A stretch of 8,791 nt of DNA from positions 1-8,791 of the IMG/VR virus record IMGVR_UViG_2740892488_000005; one strand, given 5' to 3'. Numbering within the stretch: position 1 is the first letter of the stretch; each line of letters begins with the position of its first letter. Positions 1 to 8,791 of this stretch are shown in pieces. A program made the position numbers and the translations under genes. The notes under the pieces are model-generated. The model was not told the DNA's origin. It saw only the letters and a program-made list of their open reading frames with translations, and searched no databases. The DNA is from a virus (lineage: Duplodnaviria; Heunggongvirae; Uroviricota; Caudoviricetes).

Positions 1-46
1 ACTTGTGATAAATCCGAATGGTTTGGTCGCCGTTCGGGGTAACTGG

Positions 47-68
47 CCCGCCTTGTGCGGGTCTTTTT
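47..68 (+). terminator. Putative rho-independent terminator ending an upstream off-window transcript
   Basis: Hairpin CCCGC (47-51) / loop CTTGT / GCGGG (57-61) followed directly by TCTTTTT (62-68). A TAA at 40-42 could be the stop of a gene entering from the left. Confidence 0.45.
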
Positions 69-127
69 GCTATCTAAAGGGTGCCGGTTACGTTTCCGGC
101 GTCGTTATGTTTCCATTACGACCGTAC

Positions 128-200
128 AGGGCTGGTCAGGCCCGGGCTGGTCTTTCCTGTTTTGAGCTGGTCAGGCTCATGGTCAACGCTGGTCAGGCGT
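128..200 (-). repeat. Tandem array of three stem-loops with conserved 7-nt loop (TGGTCAG on plus, CUGACCA if transcribed leftward) and covarying 4-5 bp stems
   Basis: Loops at 133-139, 168-174 and 190-196. Stems GGGC/GCCC (129-132/140-143), TGAGC/GCTCA (163-167/175-179), ACGC/GCGT (186-189/197-200). Same element occurs inverted at 2191-2205 and 4615-4631. Confidence 0.6.
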
Positions 201-291
201 GGTACTTCCTCCGGTCTTTCCCTGGTGTCACGCTGCGGGTTTGGCCTCTCCTGTTGGGGACTCAGGCACAGCGATAAAACCTGGCTGTGTG

Positions 292-319
292 AAAAAATGG
301 CCCATCGTGCGGACTGGGC
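292..319 (-). terminator. Possible intrinsic terminator on the minus strand
   Basis: On the minus strand GCCCA / 10-nt loop / TGGGC (plus 300-304 pairs with 315-319), then C and a T6 run (plus A-run 292-297). Stem is short, so tentative. Confidence 0.3.
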
Positions 320-764
320 AAAGACTAAACACAGCAAATTGATGATGGGCGCCGGAATCGAACCGGGTAACGGGCAGGGAGTTCCCGTTAAACACCTGTT
401 CACCACAACCGGGAGCGCACTCCGCCATTTCAAAATTTAACGACAAAGCTCAAAGTTGAGTCGATGAAGTGCGCTCTCGTGTTGTAGCCAGGACTCTTCC
501 CTGGTGGTCACACCGTATCGCCTTGATGGTGAATCAATCGCTCATACCTGGCTGTGGCTTGCACATTCCGGCTACCTGCTATGGAGACAACGCGTTAAGG
601 CTCCGCTTCCATCCAGACCGCTTCGACACATGTGCCATATGCCGGTGAAGTCTTTCCCTCTGTCACCGTGTTGGCGCCGACGCGCAAAATTTGGTGCCGT
701 CTTTCCGGCTGTCAGAACGTGTTTCTGAACAACTGCCGCTGGGTAAGCGTTGTTGATGAAAGTG

Positions 765-820
765 ACTTTACAATTTGTATTTGTAATGGTCAATGTGTTT
801 TTAAAAAATAATTTGTAGTG
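765..820. promoter_or_regulatory. OL-like operator cluster downstream of the repressor gene
   Basis: AT-rich block with TTTGTA at 774-779, 780-785 and 812-817; palindrome TACAA-T-TTGTA at 769-779; 9-mer ATTTGTAAT (779-787) also present at 1372-1380 in the repressor/cro intergenic region. Confidence 0.4.
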
Positions 821-911
821 AGGGGCAAAAAAATATTCACTGTGTAAAGGTGTTTTTGTGTTAGGGGAAAGTTGCATGCCAGCAGCGGCTGGCCTGGAAA
901 TTTGAACTGAA

Positions 912-1304
912 CTATTTTGTCTGGTTTTTGGCTTCAAGTAGTTCTTTTAGCAGTAGATCGAAGTGCTCTCTTTTTTCTTTTAGCTCATTGATTAATTTAT
1001 TTTTTTCGCTCTCAGGCAGTCCTCTGAATAGTTGCAGTAGAGCCTGTTCTTGCGGGGTTAGTTCTTGATTGTAATTACCCGGGTGTAGTGTGGATTCATC
1101 CAAATATTCCCCTTCATTCATGAAGAAAAAATGAACAGGGTATCCGGTCACTTTTGCTAGCTTGTCTAATTTATCTTTTCTTGGAGTTACCCCATTACAC
1201 CATGCCTGAACTGATTGAGCCGTAACCCCAATATGGCGAGCTAACTCAGATTGAGACCAGCCTAAGTCTTTTAGAATCCGTTGTAGTCGGCTAGCAAAAG
1301 CCAT
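912..1304 (-). CDS. Prophage CI-like repressor, XRE-family HTH, 130 aa, with no LexA-like S24 peptidase domain
   Basis: ORF 912..1304 (-). N-terminal HTH signature (LGWSQSELARHIGVTAQSVQAW) and helical C-terminus; divergent from a cro-like gene across an operator-rich intergenic region. No Shine-Dalgarno within about 15 nt upstream of the ATG, so possibly a short-leader or leaderless mRNA. Confidence 0.8.
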   Translation of the reverse strand: MAFASRLQRILKDLGWSQSELARHIGVTAQSVQAWCNGVTPRKDKLDKLAKVTGYPVHFFFMNEGEYLDESTLHPGNYNQELTPQEQALLQLFRGLPESEKNKLINELKEKREHFDLLLKELLEAKNQTK

Positions 1305-1424
1305 GTTTTTCGTTTTTTGTGTTCATACCGTAAGGATACAAGGTTTAATTGTAGGGAGCATTGCAAATATAATTTGTAATTACAGTTATTGTTTGTAATG
1401 ATGACGCGGACACAAGGAGTCCAT
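1305..1424. promoter_or_regulatory. Divergent promoter/operator region between repressor and cro-like gene (OR-like)
   Basis: AT-rich 120 bp intergenic region with perfect 10-bp palindrome TGTAATTACA (1375-1384), further TTTGTA copies at 1373-1378 and 1392-1397, a TTGCAA -35-like hexamer at 1361-1366, and AAGGAG SD at 1414-1419. Confidence 0.55.
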
Positions 1425-1655
1425 ATGGATAAACAACTGCAAGACAAAATTCTTTCCGTAATGAGTCAATCCGAGTTAGGGCGGCGATTAGGGAAAAAAC
1501 CACAAACGGTAAGCCTCTGGTTCAAAGGACGGGTTCCCGGTGAAGAGGTTTTGCGCACATCTGAAGCTCTTGAATGGCGCGTGACCCCTCATGATCTTAG
1601 ACCGGATCTTTACCCAAACCCAGATGACAGCTTGCCTAAAACGGAAGCAGCTTAA
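1425..1655 (+). CDS. Cro/YdaS-like HTH regulator, 76 aa
   Basis: ATG at 1425 preceded by AAGGAG (1414-1419). The track ORF starts at 1389 but that ATG lies inside the operator repeats with no SD. HTH (SQSELGRRLGKKPQTVSLWF) and the C-terminal HDLRPDLY motif typical of Cro/YdaS-type prophage proteins. Confidence 0.75.
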   Translation: MDKQLQDKILSVMSQSELGRRLGKKPQTVSLWFKGRVPGEEVLRTSEALEWRVTPHDLRPDLYPNPDDSLPKTEAA

Positions 1656-1713
1656 CTGTTGGTGAGCCCCAAATCTGATTAAGCGTAATCAATTTTTAGC
1701 GACAGGAGACGCT

Positions 1714-2190
1714 ATGGAAAACCAAGAGGAATTACAAAAAGAGATTTTGACCTGGGCGGCAAGGGCAGGGCAGGAACTCGTCACGATTGAAATCTGCCGG
1801 GCCTGGTTCAGTCAGGGACGCAATGATGAGTTGAGACTACATGAATTTGAGGACGCGGACGGCAACGTGGACTGGAGAGCCATCAACAACAATCGGCAGA
1901 AAATCTTTCGCTGGTTACGTGGCGAGACAACGGCGGCGCGCCGAAAAACTCAGGTGCTGGCCAGTGTGATGAAAGCCGTGCTACCCGCAGAACGGCGGGC
2001 ACGTCTGGAGTCGCCGGGCGATCCCGTTTTGCTGGCAACGCTGGCGGCAAAAGAAGGGGTGGAAGCGATTAACGCTGTACATCTCCACTTCGCGCCAGAG
2101 TTAACTATTCAGGAAATTGACGAAGCAATAGCGGCGCTGGTAGCGACGCGAGGAGCAGTGATACGCACTGCGCAAGACCACCATGCATGA
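1714..2190 (+). CDS. YdaT-like (CII-analog) prophage regulator, 158 aa
   Basis: ORF 1714..2190 with AGGAG at 1703-1707. Contains the motif NNRQKIFRWLRGETTAARRK, which I recognise from Rac-prophage YdaT-family proteins; sits immediately after the Cro/YdaS-like gene as in Rac-type immunity regions. Confidence 0.65.
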   Translation: MENQEELQKEILTWAARAGQELVTIEICRAWFSQGRNDELRLHEFEDADGNVDWRAINNNRQKIFRWLRGETTAARRKTQVLASVMKAVLPAERRARLESPGDPVLLATLAAKEGVEAINAVHLHFAPELTIQEIDEAIAALVATRGAVIRTAQDHHA

Positions 2191-2229
2191 GCGCCTGACC
2201 AGCGTTTAACTTATACCGAGGAAAGACCG
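2190..2229 (+). promoter_or_regulatory. Stem-loop plus conserved SD leader cassette (copy A)
   Basis: Directly after the TGA at 2188-2190: stem GCGC/GCGT (2191-2194/2202-2205) with loop CTGACCA (2195-2201), 9-nt spacer, then ACCGAGGAAAGACC (2215-2228) and ATG at 2230. Same architecture at 4615-4651. Confidence 0.55.
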
Positions 2230-2388
2230 ATGTTAAGACATATTGACCGCATTACCTGGCGTAACGGCTGGCACCTGAATGGACGCCCGGCACATGTTGC
2301 AGAGATCCGCCCCATATTCGATGGCCGCGTCGCAGCTGCACGTTCTGTATGGGAAAAGTACGAAGAAGAAAAAAGCGAAACTGCGTGA
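2230..2388 (+). CDS. Hypothetical small protein, 52 aa (below the ORF-track size cutoff)
   Basis: ATG 2230 to TGA 2386-2388, translating MLRHIDRITWRNGWHLNGRPAHVAEIRPIFDGRVAARSVWEKYEEEKSETA. Supported by the strong SD (GAGGA) and by the identical 14-nt leader that precedes the 136-aa gene at 4652. Confidence 0.45.
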   Translation: MLRHIDRITWRNGWHLNGRPAHVAEIRPIFDGRVAAARSVWEKYEEEKSETA

Positions 2389-2451
2389 GCAAAATCTCTC
2401 TGGCGCTGCCTATGAGGCTGGCTGTCGCGTTCTCTCAGAGGCTTTGGGCAT

Positions 2452-3042
2452 ATGAACATCCTCCCGTTACTTGATAGACCCATAGCCTTCCAGAGAAGTT
2501 TTATCCGTCTTGAAATGGGCGTGACTGCCGCATTGTTTCTGTCGCAGTTGACGTACTGGACAAACAGAACAACTGACGACGGCTGGGTATATAAAACCCA
2601 GGATGAGTGGGAAGAGGAAACAGGGCTTTCACGATACGAGCAGGAGGGCGCGCGCAAAAAACTACGTGGTCTCGGCGTCTTGCTGGAACGTAAACAGGGC
2701 TTGCCTGCCAGGCTGTACTACAAAATCGATAATGATGTGTTGTGCCAGCTACTTACGTCCGCATACAAGGATGCGGAAAAACCACATACAGGTGAGGGGA
2801 AAACCACCAGGCCTGTACGTGGAAAACCAACAAACATTCTTACAGAGAATACTACAGAGATTATTACTGATGGTGAATCGGCTGACGCCGACACCCAACA
2901 ACCTGCCGACCAGAGAATAAATTATCAGGTGATACTCGATACCTATCACGAGATTTTGCCAGAGATGCCACCAGTGAAAATCCTCACTGACGGCAGAAAA
3001 AAAACACCTTCGCACTTTCTGGAAAAAATTCAATTTCAATGA
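2452..3042 (+). CDS. Phage replication initiation protein (replisome-organiser type, winged-helix N-terminal domain); reading frame probably disrupted near its 3' end
   Basis: ORF 2452..3042 (196 aa); N-terminal region resembles phage O-like/DnaD-like initiator winged-helix domains and lies directly upstream of a DnaB-family helicase. An adjacent frame stays open from 2978 to 3208 and ends overlapping the helicase start, suggesting a +1 frame change at A8 (2997-3004) or A6 (3023-3028). Confidence 0.6.
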   Translation: MNILPLLDRPIAFQRSFIRLEMGVTAALFLSQLTYWTNRTTDDGWVYKTQDEWEEETGLSRYEQEGARKKLRGLGVLLERKQGLPARLYYKIDNDVLCQLLTSAYKDAEKPHTGEGKTTRPVRGKPTNILTENTTEIITDGESADADTQQPADQRINYQVILDTYHEILPEMPPVKILTDGRKKTPSHFLEKIQFQ

Positions 3043-3197
3043 GTCCCGTTGGCGGGCCTATCTGGAATTTATCGGTGGCAATTGTCGCTGGATGCTGGAG
3101 GACAGGCCAAATGGCAGGGGAGGATTCTGGCGGCGTAAAAATCTTGATTATCTGATTACCGAACGCTGCTATGTTTCGGTCAAGGAAGAACGCGCAA

Positions 3198-4613
3198 ATG
3201 ATAAATAACGCGATTGCACTGTACAGCGTTGACGCAGAACAGGCTGTTCTGGGCTGTCTGATGCTGAATACCGACCACGACAGAACCAATGCGGTATTTG
3301 CGTTACTGAAACCGGAAACGTTTTATATCAATGCGCATCAGGTTATCTACCGGGAGATCAAAGGATTATTTCAAGCTGATAAACCAACTGACCTGATAAC
3401 ACTGACCGAACTGATGGAATCGAAGGGGCTGTATGAGCGCGTGGGGGGATTCGCATACCTGGCTGAAATGAGTAAGGCGGCGATTCCGGCCTCAATGGTC
3501 AACTACGCGAAAATTGTACGTGAAAAAGCCATTCTTCGTTATGCCGTGGAAAAGTTGAATTCTTGTCTGGAGATTATGATCCAGCCTGCAGATATGACTG
3601 CTACTGACAGGATCACCGCCGTTCAGCAAGTGATTGGGCAGGTGGCCGAACATTCCCGTACCGGGCATAAGGGCGGTTTGCGTCCGGCAAGTGAAGTCGT
3701 CGATGACTGGATAGATGACCTTGAGCGCCGTTTCAATGATCCAGCACATGCAGCCGGACTAACGCTCGGAATCGAAAGCCTTGATCGCTTAATGGCACCA
3801 AAGCAGGCGTTAAGAGGTTCATTGGTCGTTATTGGTGCCCGGCCAAAAATGGGCAAGACAGCCGCGTTTAATAAAATTGCGGTGCATTTTGCTCTGAATC
3901 ATCGTTTGCCGACGCTGGTATTTAGCCTGGAAATGACTGACAGAAGTCTCATTGAACGCATGGTTGCGCAGGAAGCAAAGGTCAATTCGGAGATTTTTTA
4001 TCTTGGCCCTAACGATGAATCTGAATTGAGTCTCGCAATAGCAAAGGCGGGGGAGATTGCCGAATCCAACATGATGATTGACAGCACGGCAGGTGTAACC
4101 CTTGCGCATATTGTCGCTGAATGTCGAAAAGTTAAACGGATGCGTGGCTCGGTTGGCCTGGTGGCAATTGACTATTTGACGCTGATGAAGACCGAATCGG
4201 CAGAGCGTAGGGATATTGCGTATGGCGATATCACAACCGGTTTGAAGAACCTGGCAAAAGAGCTGGATTGTGTTGTGGTCCTGCTGACGCAACTCAACCG
4301 AAAGCTTGAAGAACGTGCCGATAAGCGGCCTAACCCGAGCGACAGTAAAGATACCGGGCAGATCGAACAAGATTGCGATGTCTGGATTGGCCTCTATCGT
4401 GATGCTGTTTATAACGAAAATGCCGACCCAAATCTCATGGAAATGTTGCTACGTCTGAACCGCGAAGGACCATCGGGAACAGCCTATGCCCTGATGAAAA
4501 ATGGCTCAGTTATTGATATCAGCGATGAGGAGGTTTATCGCCTTACCAACGACCGCTCAGAAAAAAATAAACGTTATTCCCGTAGCGATAATTCTCGCAC
4601 AAATGAATTTTAA
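3198..4613 (+). CDS. DnaB-family replicative DNA helicase (phage-encoded, P22 gp12-like)
   Basis: Track ORF 3171..4613; preferred start is ATG 3198 with AAGGAAG SD at 3183-3189. DnaB N-terminal motif (SVDAEQAVLGCLML), Walker A (GARPKMGKTA), SLEM motif, and LTQLNRKLEERADKRPNPSDSKDTGQIEQDCDVWIGLYRD matching the DnaB H3/H4 region. Confidence 0.9.
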   Translation: MINNAIALYSVDAEQAVLGCLMLNTDHDRTNAVFALLKPETFYINAHQVIYREIKGLFQADKPTDLITLTELMESKGLYERVGGFAYLAEMSKAAIPASMVNYAKIVREKAILRYAVEKLNSCLEIMIQPADMTATDRITAVQQVIGQVAEHSRTGHKGGLRPASEVVDDWIDDLERRFNDPAHAAGLTLGIESLDRLMAPKQALRGSLVVIGARPKMGKTAAFNKIAVHFALNHRLPTLVFSLEMTDRSLIERMVAQEAKVNSEIFYLGPNDESELSLAIAKAGEIAESNMMIDSTAGVTLAHIVAECRKVKRMRGSVGLVAIDYLTLMKTESAERRDIAYGDITTGLKNLAKELDCVVVLLTQLNRKLEERADKRPNPSDSKDTGQIEQDCDVWIGLYRDAVYNENADPNLMEMLLRLNREGPSGTAYALMKNGSVIDISDEEVYRLTNDRSEKNKRYSRSDNSRTNEF

Positions 4614-4614
4614 C

Positions 4615-4651
4615 CACGCCTGACCAGCGTGAAATAACCGAGGAAAGACCA
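4615..4651 (+). promoter_or_regulatory. Stem-loop plus conserved SD leader cassette (copy B)
   Basis: Directly after the helicase TAA (4611-4613): stem CACGC/GCGTG (4615-4619/4627-4631) with loop CTGACCA (4620-4626), 5-nt spacer, then ACCGAGGAAAGACC (4637-4650) and ATG at 4652. Confidence 0.55.
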
Positions 4652-5062
4652 ATGACCACCACTCCAGGCAAATTAGAGTACCCGTCGGACAAAGGACACA
4701 TAGACGACGGTAAAAACTATCTCGACGTCATTTTGTGGAATATGAACGTCGGGCCACGTGCGCGCACTCGCGCGGTTTTTGTGCCAAGACCTAAAGCAGG
4801 CAATTTTTCAACCCCTGCTAAGCCTGCCCGTCAGGCATCCGTAGCCGCAGCGCCAGCAGTGAAACGTAAGGGCAAAACGCACACCGGGATCGCGATTCGC
4901 AGAAATGGTGAGCGGCAAGTGAAACTCCACGAAACAGCGACAACCTGGTGTGCCTCACCGCATGAAACTTACGACAAGATAACCGGGCAGCGCATTGGCG
5001 CGCCTGGTCGCTGCCGCCTGCTGCTGAGTTCCATCACTCCGATAGCAAAGAAAGGGGCGTGA
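4652..5062 (+). CDS. Hypothetical protein, 136 aa
   Basis: ORF 4652..5062 with the conserved SD leader; enterobacterial-style codon usage (CTG, GCG, CCG rich); no competing ORF on either strand. No family recognised. Confidence 0.6.
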   Translation: MTTTPGKLEYPSDKGHIDDGKNYLDVILWNMNVGPRARTRAVFVPRPKAGNFSTPAKPARQASVAAAPAVKRKGKTHTGIAIRRNGERQVKLHETATTWCASPHETYDKITGQRIGAPGRCRLLLSSITPIAKKGA

Positions 5063-5063
5063 T

Positions 5064-5300
5064 ATGGCCGGGCAATCAGATTACCTGCCGCCCGGCTTAC
5101 CACACAACCGCGCCAAATGGCCCCAGGAATACCAGCTTAAAGAGCACTACGACATGCGAGCGGCGGCGCTGATCCGCCAACTCTTTGAGAAACGTATTCC
5201 GAGGGGAAGCGTGATTGAGCAAATCGGAATGACGCCAGATACGTACCGGGAATTTTTCAGAGAGCGTCTGAACTACTGGAGAGGGGTGATGGAACAATGA
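5064..5300 (+). CDS. Hypothetical protein, 78 aa
   Basis: ORF 5064..5300, starting 1 nt after the previous stop; purine-rich AAAGGGG upstream. Its stop overlaps the next start in an ATGA arrangement. Confidence 0.55.
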   Translation: MAGQSDYLPPGLPHNRAKWPQEYQLKEHYDMRAAALIRQLFEKRIPRGSVIEQIGMTPDTYREFFRERLNYWRGVMEQ

Positions 5301-5608
5301 AATACAAACGGTGGGTGCGTGCGGAAGTCGTAATCATCAAACAATGTGCGGGCAGCATGACAGTTGAACGTATAGGGCAGCTTATTGGCAGAACCGGTGC
5401 AGCGGTACGCACAAAAGCGCGCGAGCTGAAAATCTGTATGTATCTGCGGGGTAATTATCACCAGTCAGTGAAATACCTCCAGGAAGATATCGAGCTGGCA
5501 AGGGAATTACATCAGTCGGGTATTAATCGCCAGGATATCGCAGAAAAACTCGAAATGCCGATCGGAGCGGTGAATCAGTTTGTTTATTTTGAGCGGAGAA
5601 TTTCATGA
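5297..5608 (+). CDS. Hypothetical DNA-binding protein with two HTH-like segments, 103 aa
   Basis: ORF 5297..5608; ATGA overlap with the upstream gene. Two helix-turn-helix-like stretches (MTVERIGQLIGRTGAAVRTKAREL and INRQDIAEKLEMPIGAVNQFV); the HTH assignment is inferred from sequence pattern only. Confidence 0.5.
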   Translation: MKYKRWVRAEVVIIKQCAGSMTVERIGQLIGRTGAAVRTKARELKICMYLRGNYHQSVKYLQEDIELARELHQSGINRQDIAEKLEMPIGAVNQFVYFERRIS

Positions 5609-5829
5609 AAGAACTTTTTCTTGCATTTGTGCCCCGGTTTATTAATGACCAGATCGCACTGACTGATAATGGTGAACAATATGAAATTGCCTGCAGCATG
5701 GTGGATGTGAATCCTGGCGAACGGTATGACGCGATGTGTGACCTGAAAATATTTACCTGGCTGGGTTGGGCTATTCCGTGTGGAGAACCAACCAATATTC
5801 GTCCGTTTGAGAGCAGGGAGGCTGTATGA
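5605..5829 (+). CDS. Hypothetical protein, 74 aa
   Basis: ORF 5605..5829; ATGA overlap with the upstream stop, part of the coupled small-gene chain. Confidence 0.5.
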   Translation: MKELFLAFVPRFINDQIALTDNGEQYEIACSMVDVNPGERYDAMCDLKIFTWLGWAIPCGEPTNIRPFESREAV

Positions 5830-5942
5830 GTGAATTGAAAATACGTCGCAAGGCAATAGCACGCGTTAAAAATCTATTACCAGTGCCTGTCAAATATCGT
5901 TTTTGTGGTGGGAATGTACGGATTGGTACGGATGTATGGTGA
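5826..5942 (+). CDS. Possible small ORF, 38 aa
   Basis: ATG 5826 overlapping the upstream stop (ATGA), stop TGA at 5940-5942, translating MSELKIRRKAIARVKNLLPVPVKYRFCGGNVRIGTDVW. Only positional evidence. Confidence 0.3.
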   Translation: MSELKIRRKAIARVKNLLPVPVKYRFCGGNVRIGTDVW

Positions 5943-6016
5943 TTGCGGAGTGACGTAAAACGAATCGTTGTGGGTGTAATATCGTCAATATCATTGGTTT
6001 CCCGGAGGGAAAGGAC

Positions 6017-6238
6017 ATGTTTGGCGATAAACTGGAGTTACCACGGAACGGGCGGATAGTGCTCTATATTTCAGATTACAAAGTAACCCGGGCTGAGGTG
6101 TTGGAACCGGAAAAACATCTGGTCACGTTACCGGACATTATTGAGTTGTATAAGCGGGTCGGATATGTGGACTTGCATCGCGATGATGTTCCCGTTGAGT
6201 GTATGGAATGTGAACACCGGAGGTTTGAAGTTGATTGA
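6017..6238 (+). CDS. Hypothetical protein, 73 aa
   Basis: ORF 6017..6238 preceded by GGAGGGAAAGG; followed about 90 nt downstream by a terminator-like hairpin plus T7. Confidence 0.5.
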   Translation: MFGDKLELPRNGRIVLYISDYKVTRAEVLEPEKHLVTLPDIIELYKRVGYVDLHRDDVPVECMECEHRRFEVD

Positions 6239-6329
6239 ATTGACTTAGAAAAAGTCCGGGGCTATAGTTTCCGCGCAGCCGCAAAATCGGTTGCCGGGAT
6301 TGGCGTCCCGGATATCTAAGTGACGCATA

Positions 6330-6349
6330 GCCGCGTTAGCGGTTTTTTT
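6330..6349 (+). terminator. Putative intrinsic terminator closing the small-gene operon
   Basis: GCCGC (6330-6334) / loop GTTA / GCGG (6339-6342) followed by T7 (6343-6349). Short stem, moderate confidence. Confidence 0.45.
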
Positions 6350-6448
6350 ATGTGTTAGGCACGGCCACATTCGCATTATGGTGGGCTGTGTGGGGGCTTC
6401 TGTGGAAGCGCCGGGTTCACTTAGCCGGTTACGCCAACCCTGCACAGC

Positions 6449-6481
6449 TCACCACCAGATGATTGGCGTCGCTGGTGGTGA
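6449..6481. promoter_or_regulatory. Perfect 10-bp inverted repeat immediately upstream of the antirepressor start
   Basis: TCACCACCAG (6449-6458), 13-nt spacer ATGATTGGCGTCG, CTGGTGGTGA (6472-6481); right arm contains the Chi octamer GCTGGTGG (6471-6478). Antirepressor SD AAGTGAGG at 6495-6502 and ATG at 6511. Confidence 0.4.
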
Positions 6482-6510
6482 TGAAAAAAACACTAAGTGA
6501 GGCCACTGCG

Positions 6511-7300
6511 ATGACAGTCCAAATATCTGCGGAATCCCTTTCTCCGCTACATCATAACCAACTTCCCGTCATCACTACTGAATTGCTTGCCAGTTTGTAT
6601 GGCACGGAAGTAAATGGTATCCAGCAAAACTTCAAGCGCAACATCGCCAGATTTGTCGTAGGAAAGCATTTTTTTTAAGCTGGAAGGTAATGAATTACGC
6701 GACTTCAAAAACAGACTGACAGATAGTCAGTCAGTTGCTAAACATACCCGATCCCTCATTCTCTGGACAGAACGCGGCGCAGCTCGCCATGCCAAAATGC
6801 TGGAAACAGAACAGGCCTGGGAAGTTTTCGAAAAGCTGGAAGATTGTTATTTTAGCCAGCGTCCAGAGAGGCGGAGTACAACTACCGATGACCGTACTCC
6901 CTTGCGTGATGCCGTTAATATACTGGTCGGCAAGAAAGGCATGATGTATCCCGATGCCTACACCATGATTCATCAACGCTTCGCCGTCTCTCACATAGAA
7001 CAACTGTCACAGACGCAAATGTTAGAGGCGATTGAATACATCCACTGCCTGCTACTCGATGAAAATCACCCAACCATTCCAGATTTTTCTTTTATCACCA
7101 CTATCAAAAATGGAAAAGTGACCGGGATGCGCCATGTTGCCAAAGGCGAACATCTGATGACCTTTGACGCTTTCAAAGAGATCGCTGAGCGGGCAGGGTA
7201 TCTGGTGATCCACAGCGACAATCTGCGAAGTATGACACTGGATAAATTGATGGTAATGGGGAAAAAGTCGGCTATATCCGTTGCTAATTCAGCATTTTGA
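6511..7300 (+). pseudogene. Phage antirepressor-type regulatory protein, interrupted by a frameshift in a T8 run
   Basis: N-terminal part in frame 1 (6511-6678, ends GKHFF-stop) and C-terminal part in frame 2 (track ORF 6797..7300, open from 6677). Removing one T from T8 (6669-6676) gives a continuous ~262-aa protein with the conserved stretch GKHFFKLEGNELRDFKN...SLILWTERGAARHAKMLETEQAWEVFEKLEDCYF, which I recognise as antirepressor-like. Confidence 0.65.
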
Positions 7301-7427
7301 CAGGTTGTTTGGGGCGGAAATACTCTATTTGCGCTTAAAAAGGTATTTGACCACGACCAGCACGAGACCGAATACCTCTGTCAAAGTACCGCCCATATAA
7401 AACAGTTACATATGCACTTGATGACTA

Positions 7428-7459
7428 AGCTGGCACCAGGTTAACACCTGGCGCCAGCT
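7428..7459. other. Strong near-perfect hairpin between convergent genes (14-bp stem, one mismatch, 4-nt loop)
   Basis: AGCTGGCACCAGGT (7428-7441) / TAAC / ACCTGGCGCCAGCT (7446-7459). No U-tract on either strand, so not a canonical intrinsic terminator. Confidence 0.4.
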
Positions 7460-7589
7460 TGAAGGAGACTTCAGTTATTGGTTTCTGAGGAAAGCGATTC
7501 TTGAAAGGGTCATTTGCGTCTGGCAGTCGACCATTTTCTTGACTTCAGCATCTGTTCCCTGCATTGAAACTTTACCGCACATAGCATCC

Positions 7590-8294
7590 TTAGTTTTGAT
7601 CCACTGACGCTGAGAAGGCAGCAAATCTTTTTTTCTTCGCCGGGGTTAACTTGCTCCAGACGGTACTCAAATCAGAGTCGGCATTCGCAAATGCCATTCG
7701 GGACTGATCAAGGTTGTCAGCTTTTTGCGGCTGAAGTTGTGCCTGTCTCTCTATTTGCTTCTCCGCCTCATACTTAGCCTGTTCTTGCGCCCTGAGTTGC
7801 ACCTGTTGTTCCGCTTCAATTTGACTCTGTTGGGCATCCTTAGCCTGCTGGATTTTCTGCTGCTCAACGATCGGGGTGATAATGGAAAGCGATGTCAGTA
7901 AAGCGGCGCCCACTGATATCGGATTATCAGTAGAGGTTTTTACAAAAACGTTTTTCTGATCGTCGGTCGCCTGCACGGTGTAGGTGATACGTTTTGAAAA
8001 GGCGTTTGCGTTGTTCTCCAAAAACAGGCTTTCCATTTGCTTATCGAGATTACGATTAAAATTCTTTCTGTAAGCATCTGAAAGCTGGACGTACTCGTTC
8101 GCAGATAGAGTCATCGTCACGGTCCCTTCACAAGTTTTCATTGTGCTGCCCGTGTCACTTGATGTTGTGGAGATCTCAGAGATGGCTAGTTTGATCTTGT
8201 CCAGTGTGCTTCGTTTGGTCTGATTAGTGACATCAGGGTATTTATCGACCTGTTCAGAGAGTCCTTCATAAGCAGATTTTTTTAATAAATCCAT
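7590..8294 (-). CDS. Hypothetical protein, 234 aa: N-terminal domain, central hydrophobic helix, Gln/Glu-rich coiled-coil C-terminal region
   Basis: ORF 7590..8294 (-). Hydrophobic stretch ISVGAALLTSLSIITPIV followed by a heptad-like Q/E/A-rich segment. Frame stays open upstream of the ATG until a stop at plus 8358-8360, inside the IS end, so the native 5' end or promoter may have been displaced by the IS insertion. Confidence 0.55.
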   Translation of the reverse strand: MDLLKKSAYEGLSEQVDKYPDVTNQTKRSTLDKIKLAISEISTTSSDTGSTMKTCEGTVTMTLSANEYVQLSDAYRKNFNRNLDKQMESLFLENNANAFSKRITYTVQATDDQKNVFVKTSTDNPISVGAALLTSLSIITPIVEQQKIQQAKDAQQSQIEAEQQVQLRAQEQAKYEAEKQIERQAQLQPQKADNLDQSRMAFANADSDLSTVWSKLTPAKKKRFAAFSASVDQN

Positions 8295-8420
8295 GAGAGC
8301 TGACTGGGTTATTTCCGAAGAACAACCGATCTCATCTTTTTTGTTATCTGAAGTGGTTTACTGAATTTGGCCACCTGAACAGAGGTGATATGCTCACCTC
8401 AGAACAACACAGGTGCCATA

Positions 8421-8721
8421 ATGAAAAAAAGAAATTTCAGCGCAGAGTTTAAACGCGAATCCGCTCAACTGGTCGTTGACCAGAATTACACCGTGGCAGA
8501 TGCAGCCAGCGCTATGGATGTCGGCCTTTCCACAATGACGCGATGGGTGAAACAATTACGTGATGAGCGGCAGGGAAAACACCAAAAGCCTCCCCTATTA
8601 CCCCGGAACAAATTGAAATCCGTGAGCTCAGGAAAAAGCTACAACGTATTGAAATGGAAAATGAAATATTAAAAAGGCTACCGCGCTCTTGATGTCAGAC
8701 TCCCTGAACAGTTCTCGATAA
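8421..8721 (+). pseudogene. IS3-family transposase OrfA (HTH plus leucine-zipper regulator), apparently frameshifted twice
   Basis: [53 protein letters not shown] in frame 3 (from 8421); expected continuation [27 protein letters not shown] in frame 2 from 8597; expected C-terminus [14 protein letters not shown] in frame 1 ending at TAA 8719-8721. Frame changes coincide with an A4 run (8576-8579) and the A5G slippery-site region (8671-8676). Confidence 0.65.
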
Positions 8722-8791
8722 TCGGGAAACTCAGGGCGCGTTATCCTGTGGCCACTCTCTGCCATGTGTTCGGGGTCCATCGCAGCAGCTA
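8676..8791 (+). CDS. IS3-family transposase OrfB, N-terminal part (3' end beyond the window)
   Basis: Frame 3 open from 8676 to the window end with a typical OrfB N-terminus ([16 protein letters not shown]). Confidence 0.6.

Follow-up and report, generated by a model that had tools for sequence, protein, structure and literature searches.

The 8,791-nt stretch of viral DNA analysed here (positions 1 to 8,791 of IMG/VR record IMGVR_UViG_2740892488_000005, class Caudoviricetes; hereafter, the window) raises the question of why two genes of its rightward operon, starting at 2230 and 4652, are each preceded by the same small hairpin and the same 14-nt leader with a Shine–Dalgarno (SD) sequence. 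In the original prediction, made from the window alone, this repeated cassette was read as a device for coordinated post-transcriptional control or as a recombination linker. The hairpins and identical leaders are present as described, at 2188–2232 and 4615–4654, and comparison with related prophages suggests, on a slight balance of probability, that the cassette is the shared target site of one small antisense RNA, predicted on the strand opposite the leftward leader, which would repress the translation of several early genes in a coordinated manner.

The cassette is a two-part RNA element consisting of a hairpin whose loop contains GACCA and, 5–25 nt downstream, an invariant 11-mer, GAGG(A/C)AAGACC, which is also the SD sequence and is followed by the start codon after 0–7 nt. 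The hairpin of the first copy (2188–2208, plus strand) carries the loop CUGACCA (2195–2201) on the core stem GCGC/GCGU (2191–2194/2202–2205), directly after the TGA stop codon of a ydaT-like gene (2188–2190); up to seven pairs can form over 2188–2208, with an energy of −6.5 kcal/mol and a z-score of −2.6. Its linear element, GAGGAAAGACC, contains the SD sequence and lies at 2218–2228 (plus strand), and the ATG codon at 2230 opens a gene designated D0. The second copy, on the same strand, comprises the hairpin CACGC-CUGACCA-GCGUG (4615–4631; loop at 4620–4626; −6.6 kcal/mol, z-score −5.6), just 3′ of the helicase stop codon TAA (4611–4613), and the linear element GAGGAAAGACC at 4640–4650, followed by the ATG codon (4652) of the 136-aa gene D1 (phrog_5148). 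The 14-mer ACCGAGGAAAGACC occupies 2215–2228 in the first copy and 4637–4650 in the second. Both 14-mers repeat exactly, whereas 0.07 and 0.10 matches would be expected by chance in a window of this size; in 200 shuffles, counts this high never arose. The first of the two downstream reading frames had been taken for a gene of 52 codons; it is a 74-aa gene (phrog_2465) frameshifted by an extra A at 2369, and this gene is intact in all nine fetched loci that have the same stretch.

Further copies, missed in the original prediction, lie on the other strand. A geneless cassette-like array at 129–226 (minus strand), within the leftward (pL) leader, includes three hairpins, ACGC-CUGACCA-GCGU (186–200), UGAGC-CUGACCA-GCUCA (163–179) and GGGC-CUGACCA-GCCC (129–143), and two linear elements, ACCAGGGAAAGACC (213–226) and AGGAAAGACC (149–158), with exact matches to GGAAAGACC at 213–221 and 149–157. 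A pL-like promoter found by a promoter scan at 765–793 (minus strand; TTGACC-17-TAAAGT, flanked by an operator-like repeat) sets the leftward transcript that bears these copies. All cassette copies in the window point in the direction of early transcription.

The same arrangement is seen over a 49-kb prophage locus, where GGAAAGACC occurs exactly seven times, always in the early region and in the sense orientation relative to transcription of both divergent operons. Four of these copies directly precede the start codons of the xis-like gene, the exonuclease gene, D0 and D1, and three are in the leftward leader. In both early operons, the gene blocks that are translated independently begin with the cassette (in locus L002, those of D0, D1, the exonuclease and the xis-like gene). 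Translational coupling, also considered in the original prediction, is not indicated, since both copies in the window head blocks needing fresh initiation.

A pattern scan of viral contigs, in which the motif is fixed by the scan itself, returned at least 216 matches in at least 120 loci; among the matches listed, the downstream genes belong to three families, D0 (89), D1 (77) and the exonuclease (27). An independent sample was therefore assembled by exonuclease homology rather than by the motif, comprising 35 loci from 35 species and 13 genera of Enterobacterales. The 11-mer was present in three to nine copies per approximately 18-kb locus; 218 of the 222 copies of GAGG[N]AAGACC are on the early-transcription strand, most of them at start sites, and leader copies away from start sites were found in most loci. 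Ten of the 11 nucleotides are invariant across the 13 genera. At D0, the GACCA core of the hairpin is fixed while the stem turns over (GCGC/GCGU, GCGG/CCGC, CACGC/GCGUG, CGCGU/ACGUG, UGCGC/GCGCA and GCUUU/AAAGC), and a G·U to A·C ratio of 16:4 in the CUGACCA-loop hairpins assigns the structure to the mRNA strand. In phage BUCT708, the hairpin is located within the last six codons of a different cII-like gene, while here it lies past the ydaT stop codon; being coding in one case and non-coding in the other, it is conserved at the nucleic-acid level. These alignments indicate that the cassette is under strong selection in 13 genera. Its carriers are lambdoid temperate phages of Enterobacterales, and it was not inserted between two genes, as first proposed, but is the ancestral head of the replication module.

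A putative reader of these sites was identified on the strand opposite the leftward leader. A terminator scan of the window called a strong plus-strand intrinsic terminator, GGCCCGC-CUUGU-GCGGGUC, at 45–63, followed by a U-run to 68; on the minus strand the T-run is lacking. It would end a predicted antisense small RNA, of which the 3′ two-thirds occupy 1–68 (plus strand) and the remainder is cut off by the window edge; the prediction combines a covariance model, the terminator scan, alignments, covariation and strand asymmetry. The part inside the window includes the 3′ arm of hairpin B (1–9) and hairpin C with the loop UUUGGUCG (13–36), followed by GGGGUAA, all on the plus strand, while the seed UUGGUCUUUCCUC and a −10 hexamer lie approximately 20–85 nt to the left of the window, at 2921–2985 of locus L001. 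The complete RNA is modelled to be about 115–140 nt long, with a 5′ end predicted some 7 nt past the hexamer TATACT (L001, near 2933).

The order of elements is the same in all lineages examined, which include phage ZF40 and loci of Yersinia, Serratia, Providencia, Proteus, Morganella, Xenorhabdus and Photorhabdus. A hexamer TAnnnT (TATACT, TATAAT, TAAAAT or TATATT), located just upstream of the SD sequence of a 106-aa gene encoded on the opposite strand, is followed by a first hairpin that covaries and holds an invariant GAUC, the invariant seed (A/G)UUGGUCUU(U/G)CCUC, hairpin B with an 8–9 bp stem and the loop UUGGUC, hairpin C with the loop UUUGGUC, GGGUAA, and the intrinsic terminator. Across 31 diverse sequences, the hexamer, the seed, the hairpin loops and the terminator vary little or not at all. 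In an alignment of 25 sequences, paired cells amount to 93.1% compared to 72.5% in shuffles, and the covariation score is 0.627 versus 0.236 in shuffles, none of 500 of which reached the observed value, with slid controls at 0.15 or less. Double changes were seen at all nine pairs of hairpin B, the Escherichia coli sequence folds with a z-score of −6.5, and the G·U to A·C ratios of the UUGGUC-loop hairpins (48:6 and 22:4) favour the antisense strand. The terminator is kept with compensatory changes in all sequences of both the 31- and the 25-sequence alignments and is spanned by all 38 full-length model hits.

The covariance model, built from the 25-sequence alignment, gave a single match per locus, with scores of 74–102 bits, always antisense and placed 380–750 nt before the start of the exonuclease gene; this applies to the 35 genome loci without exception as well as to ZF40, BUCT708 and L001. 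The match in the window (1–68, plus strand; model positions 35–102) is truncated at the 5′ end and scores 48 bits (E-value 9e-9). Of 100 viral loci, 69 were matched too, and the other 31 end before the region or carry none of five marker genes. Of 5426 complete E. coli genomes, 449 (about 8%) carry the RNA gene, among them that of an O25:H4 strain, and it is also found in prophages of Yersinia, Serratia, Proteus, Providencia, Morganella, Xenorhabdus, Photorhabdus and Pectobacterium. Isolated phages carrying it are limited to BUCT708/709, found by BLAST, and ZF40, found by the model, and therefore no studied model phage is available. No Rfam family was found at this location (1–226 in the window, 2900–3100 in L001). 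We regard it as highly probable that the antisense RNA gene is real.

Two further features of this region were observed. The invariant GATC, a Dam site, is placed in the loop of the 5′ hairpin of the RNA (L001, approximately 2932–2940, plus strand), which is at the same time the 5′ untranslated region of the 106-aa gene. In E. coli 2020CK-00188, 33 nt of a CRISPR (clustered regularly interspaced short palindromic repeats) array are identical to the region of the seed and hairpin B (L001, 2970–3002), where the leader cassette is also located; the matched stretch begins about 30 nt to the left of the window and runs into positions 1–2.

The conserved stretch of the RNA is the exact complement of the 11-mer, and UGGUC in the RNA loops is complementary to GACCA in the cassette loop, with up to seven pairs when flanking bases are counted. 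Over the SD sequence and AUG codon, 11–17 contiguous pairs are possible at D0, D1, the exonuclease gene and the xis-like gene; the 17 contiguous pairs of D1 (GAGGAAAGACCAAUGAC) with the RNA seed can be read directly off the sequences. Full-length duplexfold calculations gave meaningless long interactions, and seed duplexes and cofold were used instead. The predicted seed duplex energies were −32.8 kcal/mol for the exonuclease gene, −31.3 for D1, −28.8 for D0 and −26.4 for the xis-like gene, compared to −22.4 or weaker for 34 other start sites. Net cofold energies ranged from −16.3 to −14.1 kcal/mol at the cassette start sites (D0, −16.3; D1, −16.1) and were −8.8 or weaker elsewhere, which puts these start sites in the first four places among 38 by seed duplex and among 24 by cofold. 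The predicted probability of being unpaired averages 0.94 for the RNA loops and 0.53 for the seed.

Both parts of the RNA that would contact the cassette are kept constant. The seed is present in 65 of 66 distinct RNAs, with U or G at one position and, in six, A or U in place of the last C, and UUGGUC is kept in the loops of nearly all 66 while the stems turn over. This exceeds what is expected of an antisense RNA acting in cis, since a purely cis pair needs no constant sequence. Moreover, the variable base of the 11-mer is A in all 30 copies from five loci of Escherichia, Raoultella, Enterobacter and Citrobacter, where the seed has U, while in the other nine genera the 11-mer has C and the seed G. 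Among copies ending in GACC, the only exceptions are changes of C to U, with which G still forms a wobble pair.

Several observations weigh against the antisense explanation. A conserved GAUCAG upstream of the seed is predicted to pair with the 5′ half of it. The compensatory A/C change of seed and target is essentially one phylogenetic event and is therefore statistically weak. No seeds with A or C at the variable position were found, the matches in at least 239 loci listed from two scans of viral contigs all being chance matches without the RNA architecture, and the loops of the RNA and those of its targets showed no covariation in trans. The complementarity could come simply from paralogy; some of it is unavoidable, since the leader has a cassette copy of its own to which the RNA is complementary. 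The hairpin is absent at the xis-like start, at the exonuclease start in Providencia and relatives, and at D0 in Pectobacterium, and a loop–loop kissing step therefore cannot be obligatory. The putative promoter has a −10 hexamer only, with no recognisable −35 element and an extended −10 in some variants only. In none of the 449 carrying genomes does the RefSeq annotation contain a feature at the RNA gene, and literature searches by keyword and sequence string returned nothing relevant to the cassette or the RNA.

Of the two roles originally proposed, coordinated post-transcriptional control is nevertheless favoured, given the selection in 13 genera, the orientation along transcription, the retention of the hairpin in both coding and non-coding contexts, and the conserved complementary gene on the opposite strand. 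According to the proposed mechanism, the RNA would be transcribed from the strand opposite the leftward leader, its UUGGUC loops would kiss the CUGACCA loop of the cassette, and the single-stranded seed UUGGUCUU(U/G)CCUC would then pair with the 11-mer and usually the AUG codon, covering the SD sequence. The seed GGUCUUUCC would be matched to the target GAGGAAAGACC, and an altered seed GGUCUUGCC would match the target GAGGCAAGACC. Such binding in trans would block ribosomes jointly at all cassette start sites, switching off the recombination, excision and replication blocks together. The geneless copies of the pL leader (129–226) would form the cis target of the RNA and possibly act as titrating decoys once pL fires. 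One could go further and hypothesise an RNA-only second lock, in which a single RNA shuts the early blocks by kissing and seed pairing until pL fires and the leader, with its three to five cassette copies, sponges or destroys this RNA and thereby releases all of them simultaneously; we consider this extended scheme possible but doubtful.

Alternatively, the cassette could be the binding site of a protein, either an N/nut-type antiterminator using the hairpin as boxB or a RegA-like repressor that reads the GACCA loop and the linear GACC. A boxB-like feature does exist, in the form of hairpins that combine a fixed GACCA loop core with stems that covary, in both the leftward leader and the rightward operon: the 7-nt loop is fixed while the stem covaries, several leftward-leader hairpins are located just downstream of an intrinsic terminator, and the rightward copy, past the cro- and cII-like genes, is roughly at the position of nutR in phage lambda. 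The loop also resembles the boxB loop of phi21 (CUAACC) and the boxB of P22 (GCGCUGACAAAGCGC). However, alignments of the upstream regions revealed no conserved boxA (CGCUCUUA- or UGCUCUUUAAC-like) flanking the hairpins, and the UUUAAC following the first copy is a relic of the stop-codon context that the other copies do not have. The approximately 1 kb between pL and the first gene contains no conserved open reading frame, a lone Arg-rich one occurring in four loci only, and no early protein belongs to an RNA-binding family or has a solved relative. Neither Pfam nor PHROGs assigns a function to the 106-aa gene (phrog_2479), the first after pL, and it has no solved relative of significance; sequence searches of the PDB for D0, D1 and this protein likewise yielded nothing significant (best E-value 0.6). 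No terminator follows the first copy, the linear element doubles as the SD sequence, and a protein site does not predict a conserved, terminator-ended complement on the other strand. With neither boxA nor an N-like reading frame, a nut/N system was rejected, and a protein site in general appears unlikely.

The antisense target site also has to be weighed against a simpler possibility, namely that the cassette is merely a strong shared ribosome-binding module, spread by duplication and working without any trans factor, whose hairpin serves as a structural insulator, holding the SD sequence accessible and protecting the mRNA end upstream of it. At about 8 nt, the distance from GAGG to AUG is optimal, folding leaves the SD sequence and AUG codon unpaired beside a stable hairpin at both plus-strand copies, and both copies head blocks whose internal genes have overlapping stop and start codons. 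Yet an SD sequence needs 4–6 nt, while 10 of 11 are invariant in 13 genera, even inside an upstream open reading frame. An insulator would not account for a fixed loop sequence on varying stems, nor a ribosome-binding module for conserved geneless leader copies or for the same variable base being shared by all copies of one genome. We therefore judge this possibility improbable.

The recombination linker of the original prediction, i.e., a short conserved sequence at module boundaries used for exchange by homologous recombination, finds limited backing in the cross-genome comparison. The two plus-strand copies bracket the replication module (2188–4654), and in phages with different cII-type genes upstream of D0 (YdaT-like versus other cII-like families) homology resumes at the 5′ edge of the hairpin (2190/2191), which is a mosaic junction. 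However, identity runs over only 11–18 nt, the stem covariation is explained by base pairing rather than homology, invariant loops and geneless copies are left unexplained, and the orientation follows transcription. The copies also occur at constant synteny (for example, helicase followed by D1 in 78 of 129 clustered upstream open reading frames), the leader copies flank no module, and the structure of the antisense gene is selected on one strand. A primary role in recombination is thus very unlikely, and exchange at these sites may be a by-product.

The remaining candidates were rejected. The terminator scan called neither plus-strand cassette hairpin, and UUUAAC after the first copy and GAAAUAAC after the second contain no U-run; an intrinsic terminator or attenuator was rejected on these grounds. 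No sigma-70-like site was found at or beside either plus-strand cassette. Rfam models matched the isrK and C4 families elsewhere in the window and nothing at the cassettes (2188–2232 and 4613–4654). Readings at the DNA level (iterons, replication-oriented signals or a palindromic operator, of which only the outer GCGC of the hairpin is palindromic) were dropped because the cassette reverses its direction together with transcription where the cI-like and cro-like genes diverge, and because of the covarying stems.

The window belongs to a lambdoid E. coli prophage, and at least 80% of it is covered in 415 complete genomes; in NZ_CM190130, the prophage adjoins a tRNA-Leu gene. Leftward from the cI-like repressor gene (912–1304, minus strand), approximately 1 kb without genes is followed by the 106-aa gene, a large exonuclease gene, gp157, the xis-like gene and int. 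In the rightward direction lie the cro-like gene, the YdaT/cII-like gene, D0, an O-like initiator gene, the DnaB helicase gene, D1 and small genes, followed by a module of isrK, C4 and ant, then by Q and the lysis genes, and lastly by head genes like those of lambda. The operator-like repeat TTACAATTTGTATTTGTAAT is located at the pL-like promoter (768–787 and 804–817), and two overlapping copies are present between the cI-like and cro-like genes (1361–1400). Compared to NZ_CM190130, the window has five single-base homopolymer indels, at 64, 351, 1313, 2369 and 2997, and no mismatches over 6 kb. Besides D0, one other gene is broken by such an indel, that of the O-like initiator, which is shortened from 251 to 196 aa; the five indels look like assembly errors rather than biology.

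A complete P1/P7-type immI RNA module was identified by Rfam models at 6262–6459 (plus strand), upstream of an ORF6N/antirepressor-like gene, with scores of 52.9 bits for c4-a1b1, 80.4 bits for isrK and 75.2 bits for the C4 antisense RNA, all exceeding the gathering scores. Within the coding sequence of D1, a terminator-like GC hairpin followed by GTTTTTGT lies at 4757–4774 (plus strand), about 100 nt past the second cassette copy; it may be coincidental, since it overlaps a conserved RARTRAVFV peptide motif.

The pL leader RNA has additional features. Its 3′ end (290–399, minus strand) resembles the 3′ half of the host small RNA RprA, with UUGCUGUGUuUAGUCUUUGCCC and a terminator. The match to Rfam family RF00034 reaches 36–37 bits (E-value 0.014–0.17), under the gathering score of 70, and the leaders of BUCT708 and ZF40 likewise retain the core GCUGUGU(G)UAGUC. 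This tail could be a prophage-borne RprA mimic, and as such the end of the leader could act on host targets. Inspection revealed no convincing complementarity of the cassette to the C4, isrK or RprA-like elements of the window, the best for the RprA-like tail being 8 bp with a bulge. Just upstream of this tail, the leader RNA contains a tRNA-like T-arm, GGTTCGATTCCGG (approximately 340–365, minus strand); a tRNA or attachment-site remnant was rejected, ARAGORN being negative. The sole other signal was a weak match to the tRNA-Sec model in L001. Just downstream of pL, there are two small hairpins with GAAAGA loops (690–712 and 645–664, minus strand), each preceded by (C/G)UGACAG. This motif recurs in the leaders of BUCT708, ZF40 and Providencia, with a G·U to A·C ratio of 11:8 indicating no strand preference, and the hairpins might be put-like.

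If the proposed antisense control is correct, this prophage family would offer a compact and easily testable case of a single phage small RNA controlling several early blocks in divergent operons. Such control could bear on prophage stability, on the timing of induction, and on the way in which a shared point of regulation is retained by mosaic modules. Seed and start site also occur in natural A- and C-type pairings, which suggests orthogonal regulator–target pairs for engineering.

Among known systems, the closest parallel is the C4 RNA of the P1/P7 immI region (Rfam RF01695 and RF03163). The exposed loops of this phage small RNA base-pair with short repeats that overlap a ribosome-binding site, and translation of early or antirepressor genes is thereby blocked. 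However, C4 and its target derive from a single transcript, from which C4 is cut, and it controls one operon, whereas the new RNA is encoded on the strand opposite the pL leader and has at least four predicted start sites in two divergent operons. No similarity in sequence or model was found between the two, the Rfam C4 and c4-a1b1 models matching only 6262–6459, and the new RNA is therefore not a member of the C4 family. The sar RNA of P22 and the OOP RNA of lambda are short, terminator-ended RNAs on the opposite strand within an early operon, where they damp a gene of the lysis–lysogeny decision. The new RNA, as predicted, would share this size, ending and location. However, sar and OOP each have a single, fully overlapping target, while the new RNA matches sites kilobases away, and its invariant seed and loops, kept despite stem turnover, imply additional non-overlapping partners.

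On the side of the target, the cassette shares with the nut sites of lambda a small hairpin whose loop is conserved and which occurs in each of the two early transcripts, past pL in one and past the cro region in the other. It differs in having neither a boxA nor an associated N-like gene nor any dependence on downstream terminators, in having a third copy past the helicase gene, and in that the linear partner 3′ of the hairpin is the SD sequence. PeSL elements of T4-type phages are likewise repeated cassettes of a stem-loop and an expression signal that lie between early genes at mosaic boundaries. However, PeSLs carry a promoter and are thought to act through recombination, whereas no promoter-like site was found at either plus-strand cassette described here, the signal being a ribosome site, and the cassettes show loop-specific conservation together with a complementary RNA. 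Since defining features of nut sites and of PeSLs were looked for and not found, the cassette is neither. A functional analogue is the RegA protein of T4, a single factor acting at many early initiation regions and leading to their joint shut-off; RegA is a protein recognising AU-rich start sites, while the reader proposed here is an RNA and its site an 11-mer with a hairpin.

In its predicted architecture, the new RNA is similar to multi-target anti-SD small RNAs of enterobacteria, such as DicF of prophage origin, which combine a single-stranded 5′ or internal seed with stem-loops and a Rho-independent terminator with a U-tail, and, as with these, several mRNAs would be repressed at their start sites. 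The difference is that the predicted targets are the phage's own early genes, equipped with a dedicated duplicated cassette. To our knowledge, the known phage antisense RNAs (sar, OOP, C4 and CI of P4) each act on a single locus. What would be new here is that a single phage RNA has its own target cassette, which is repeated at several start sites of both early operons.

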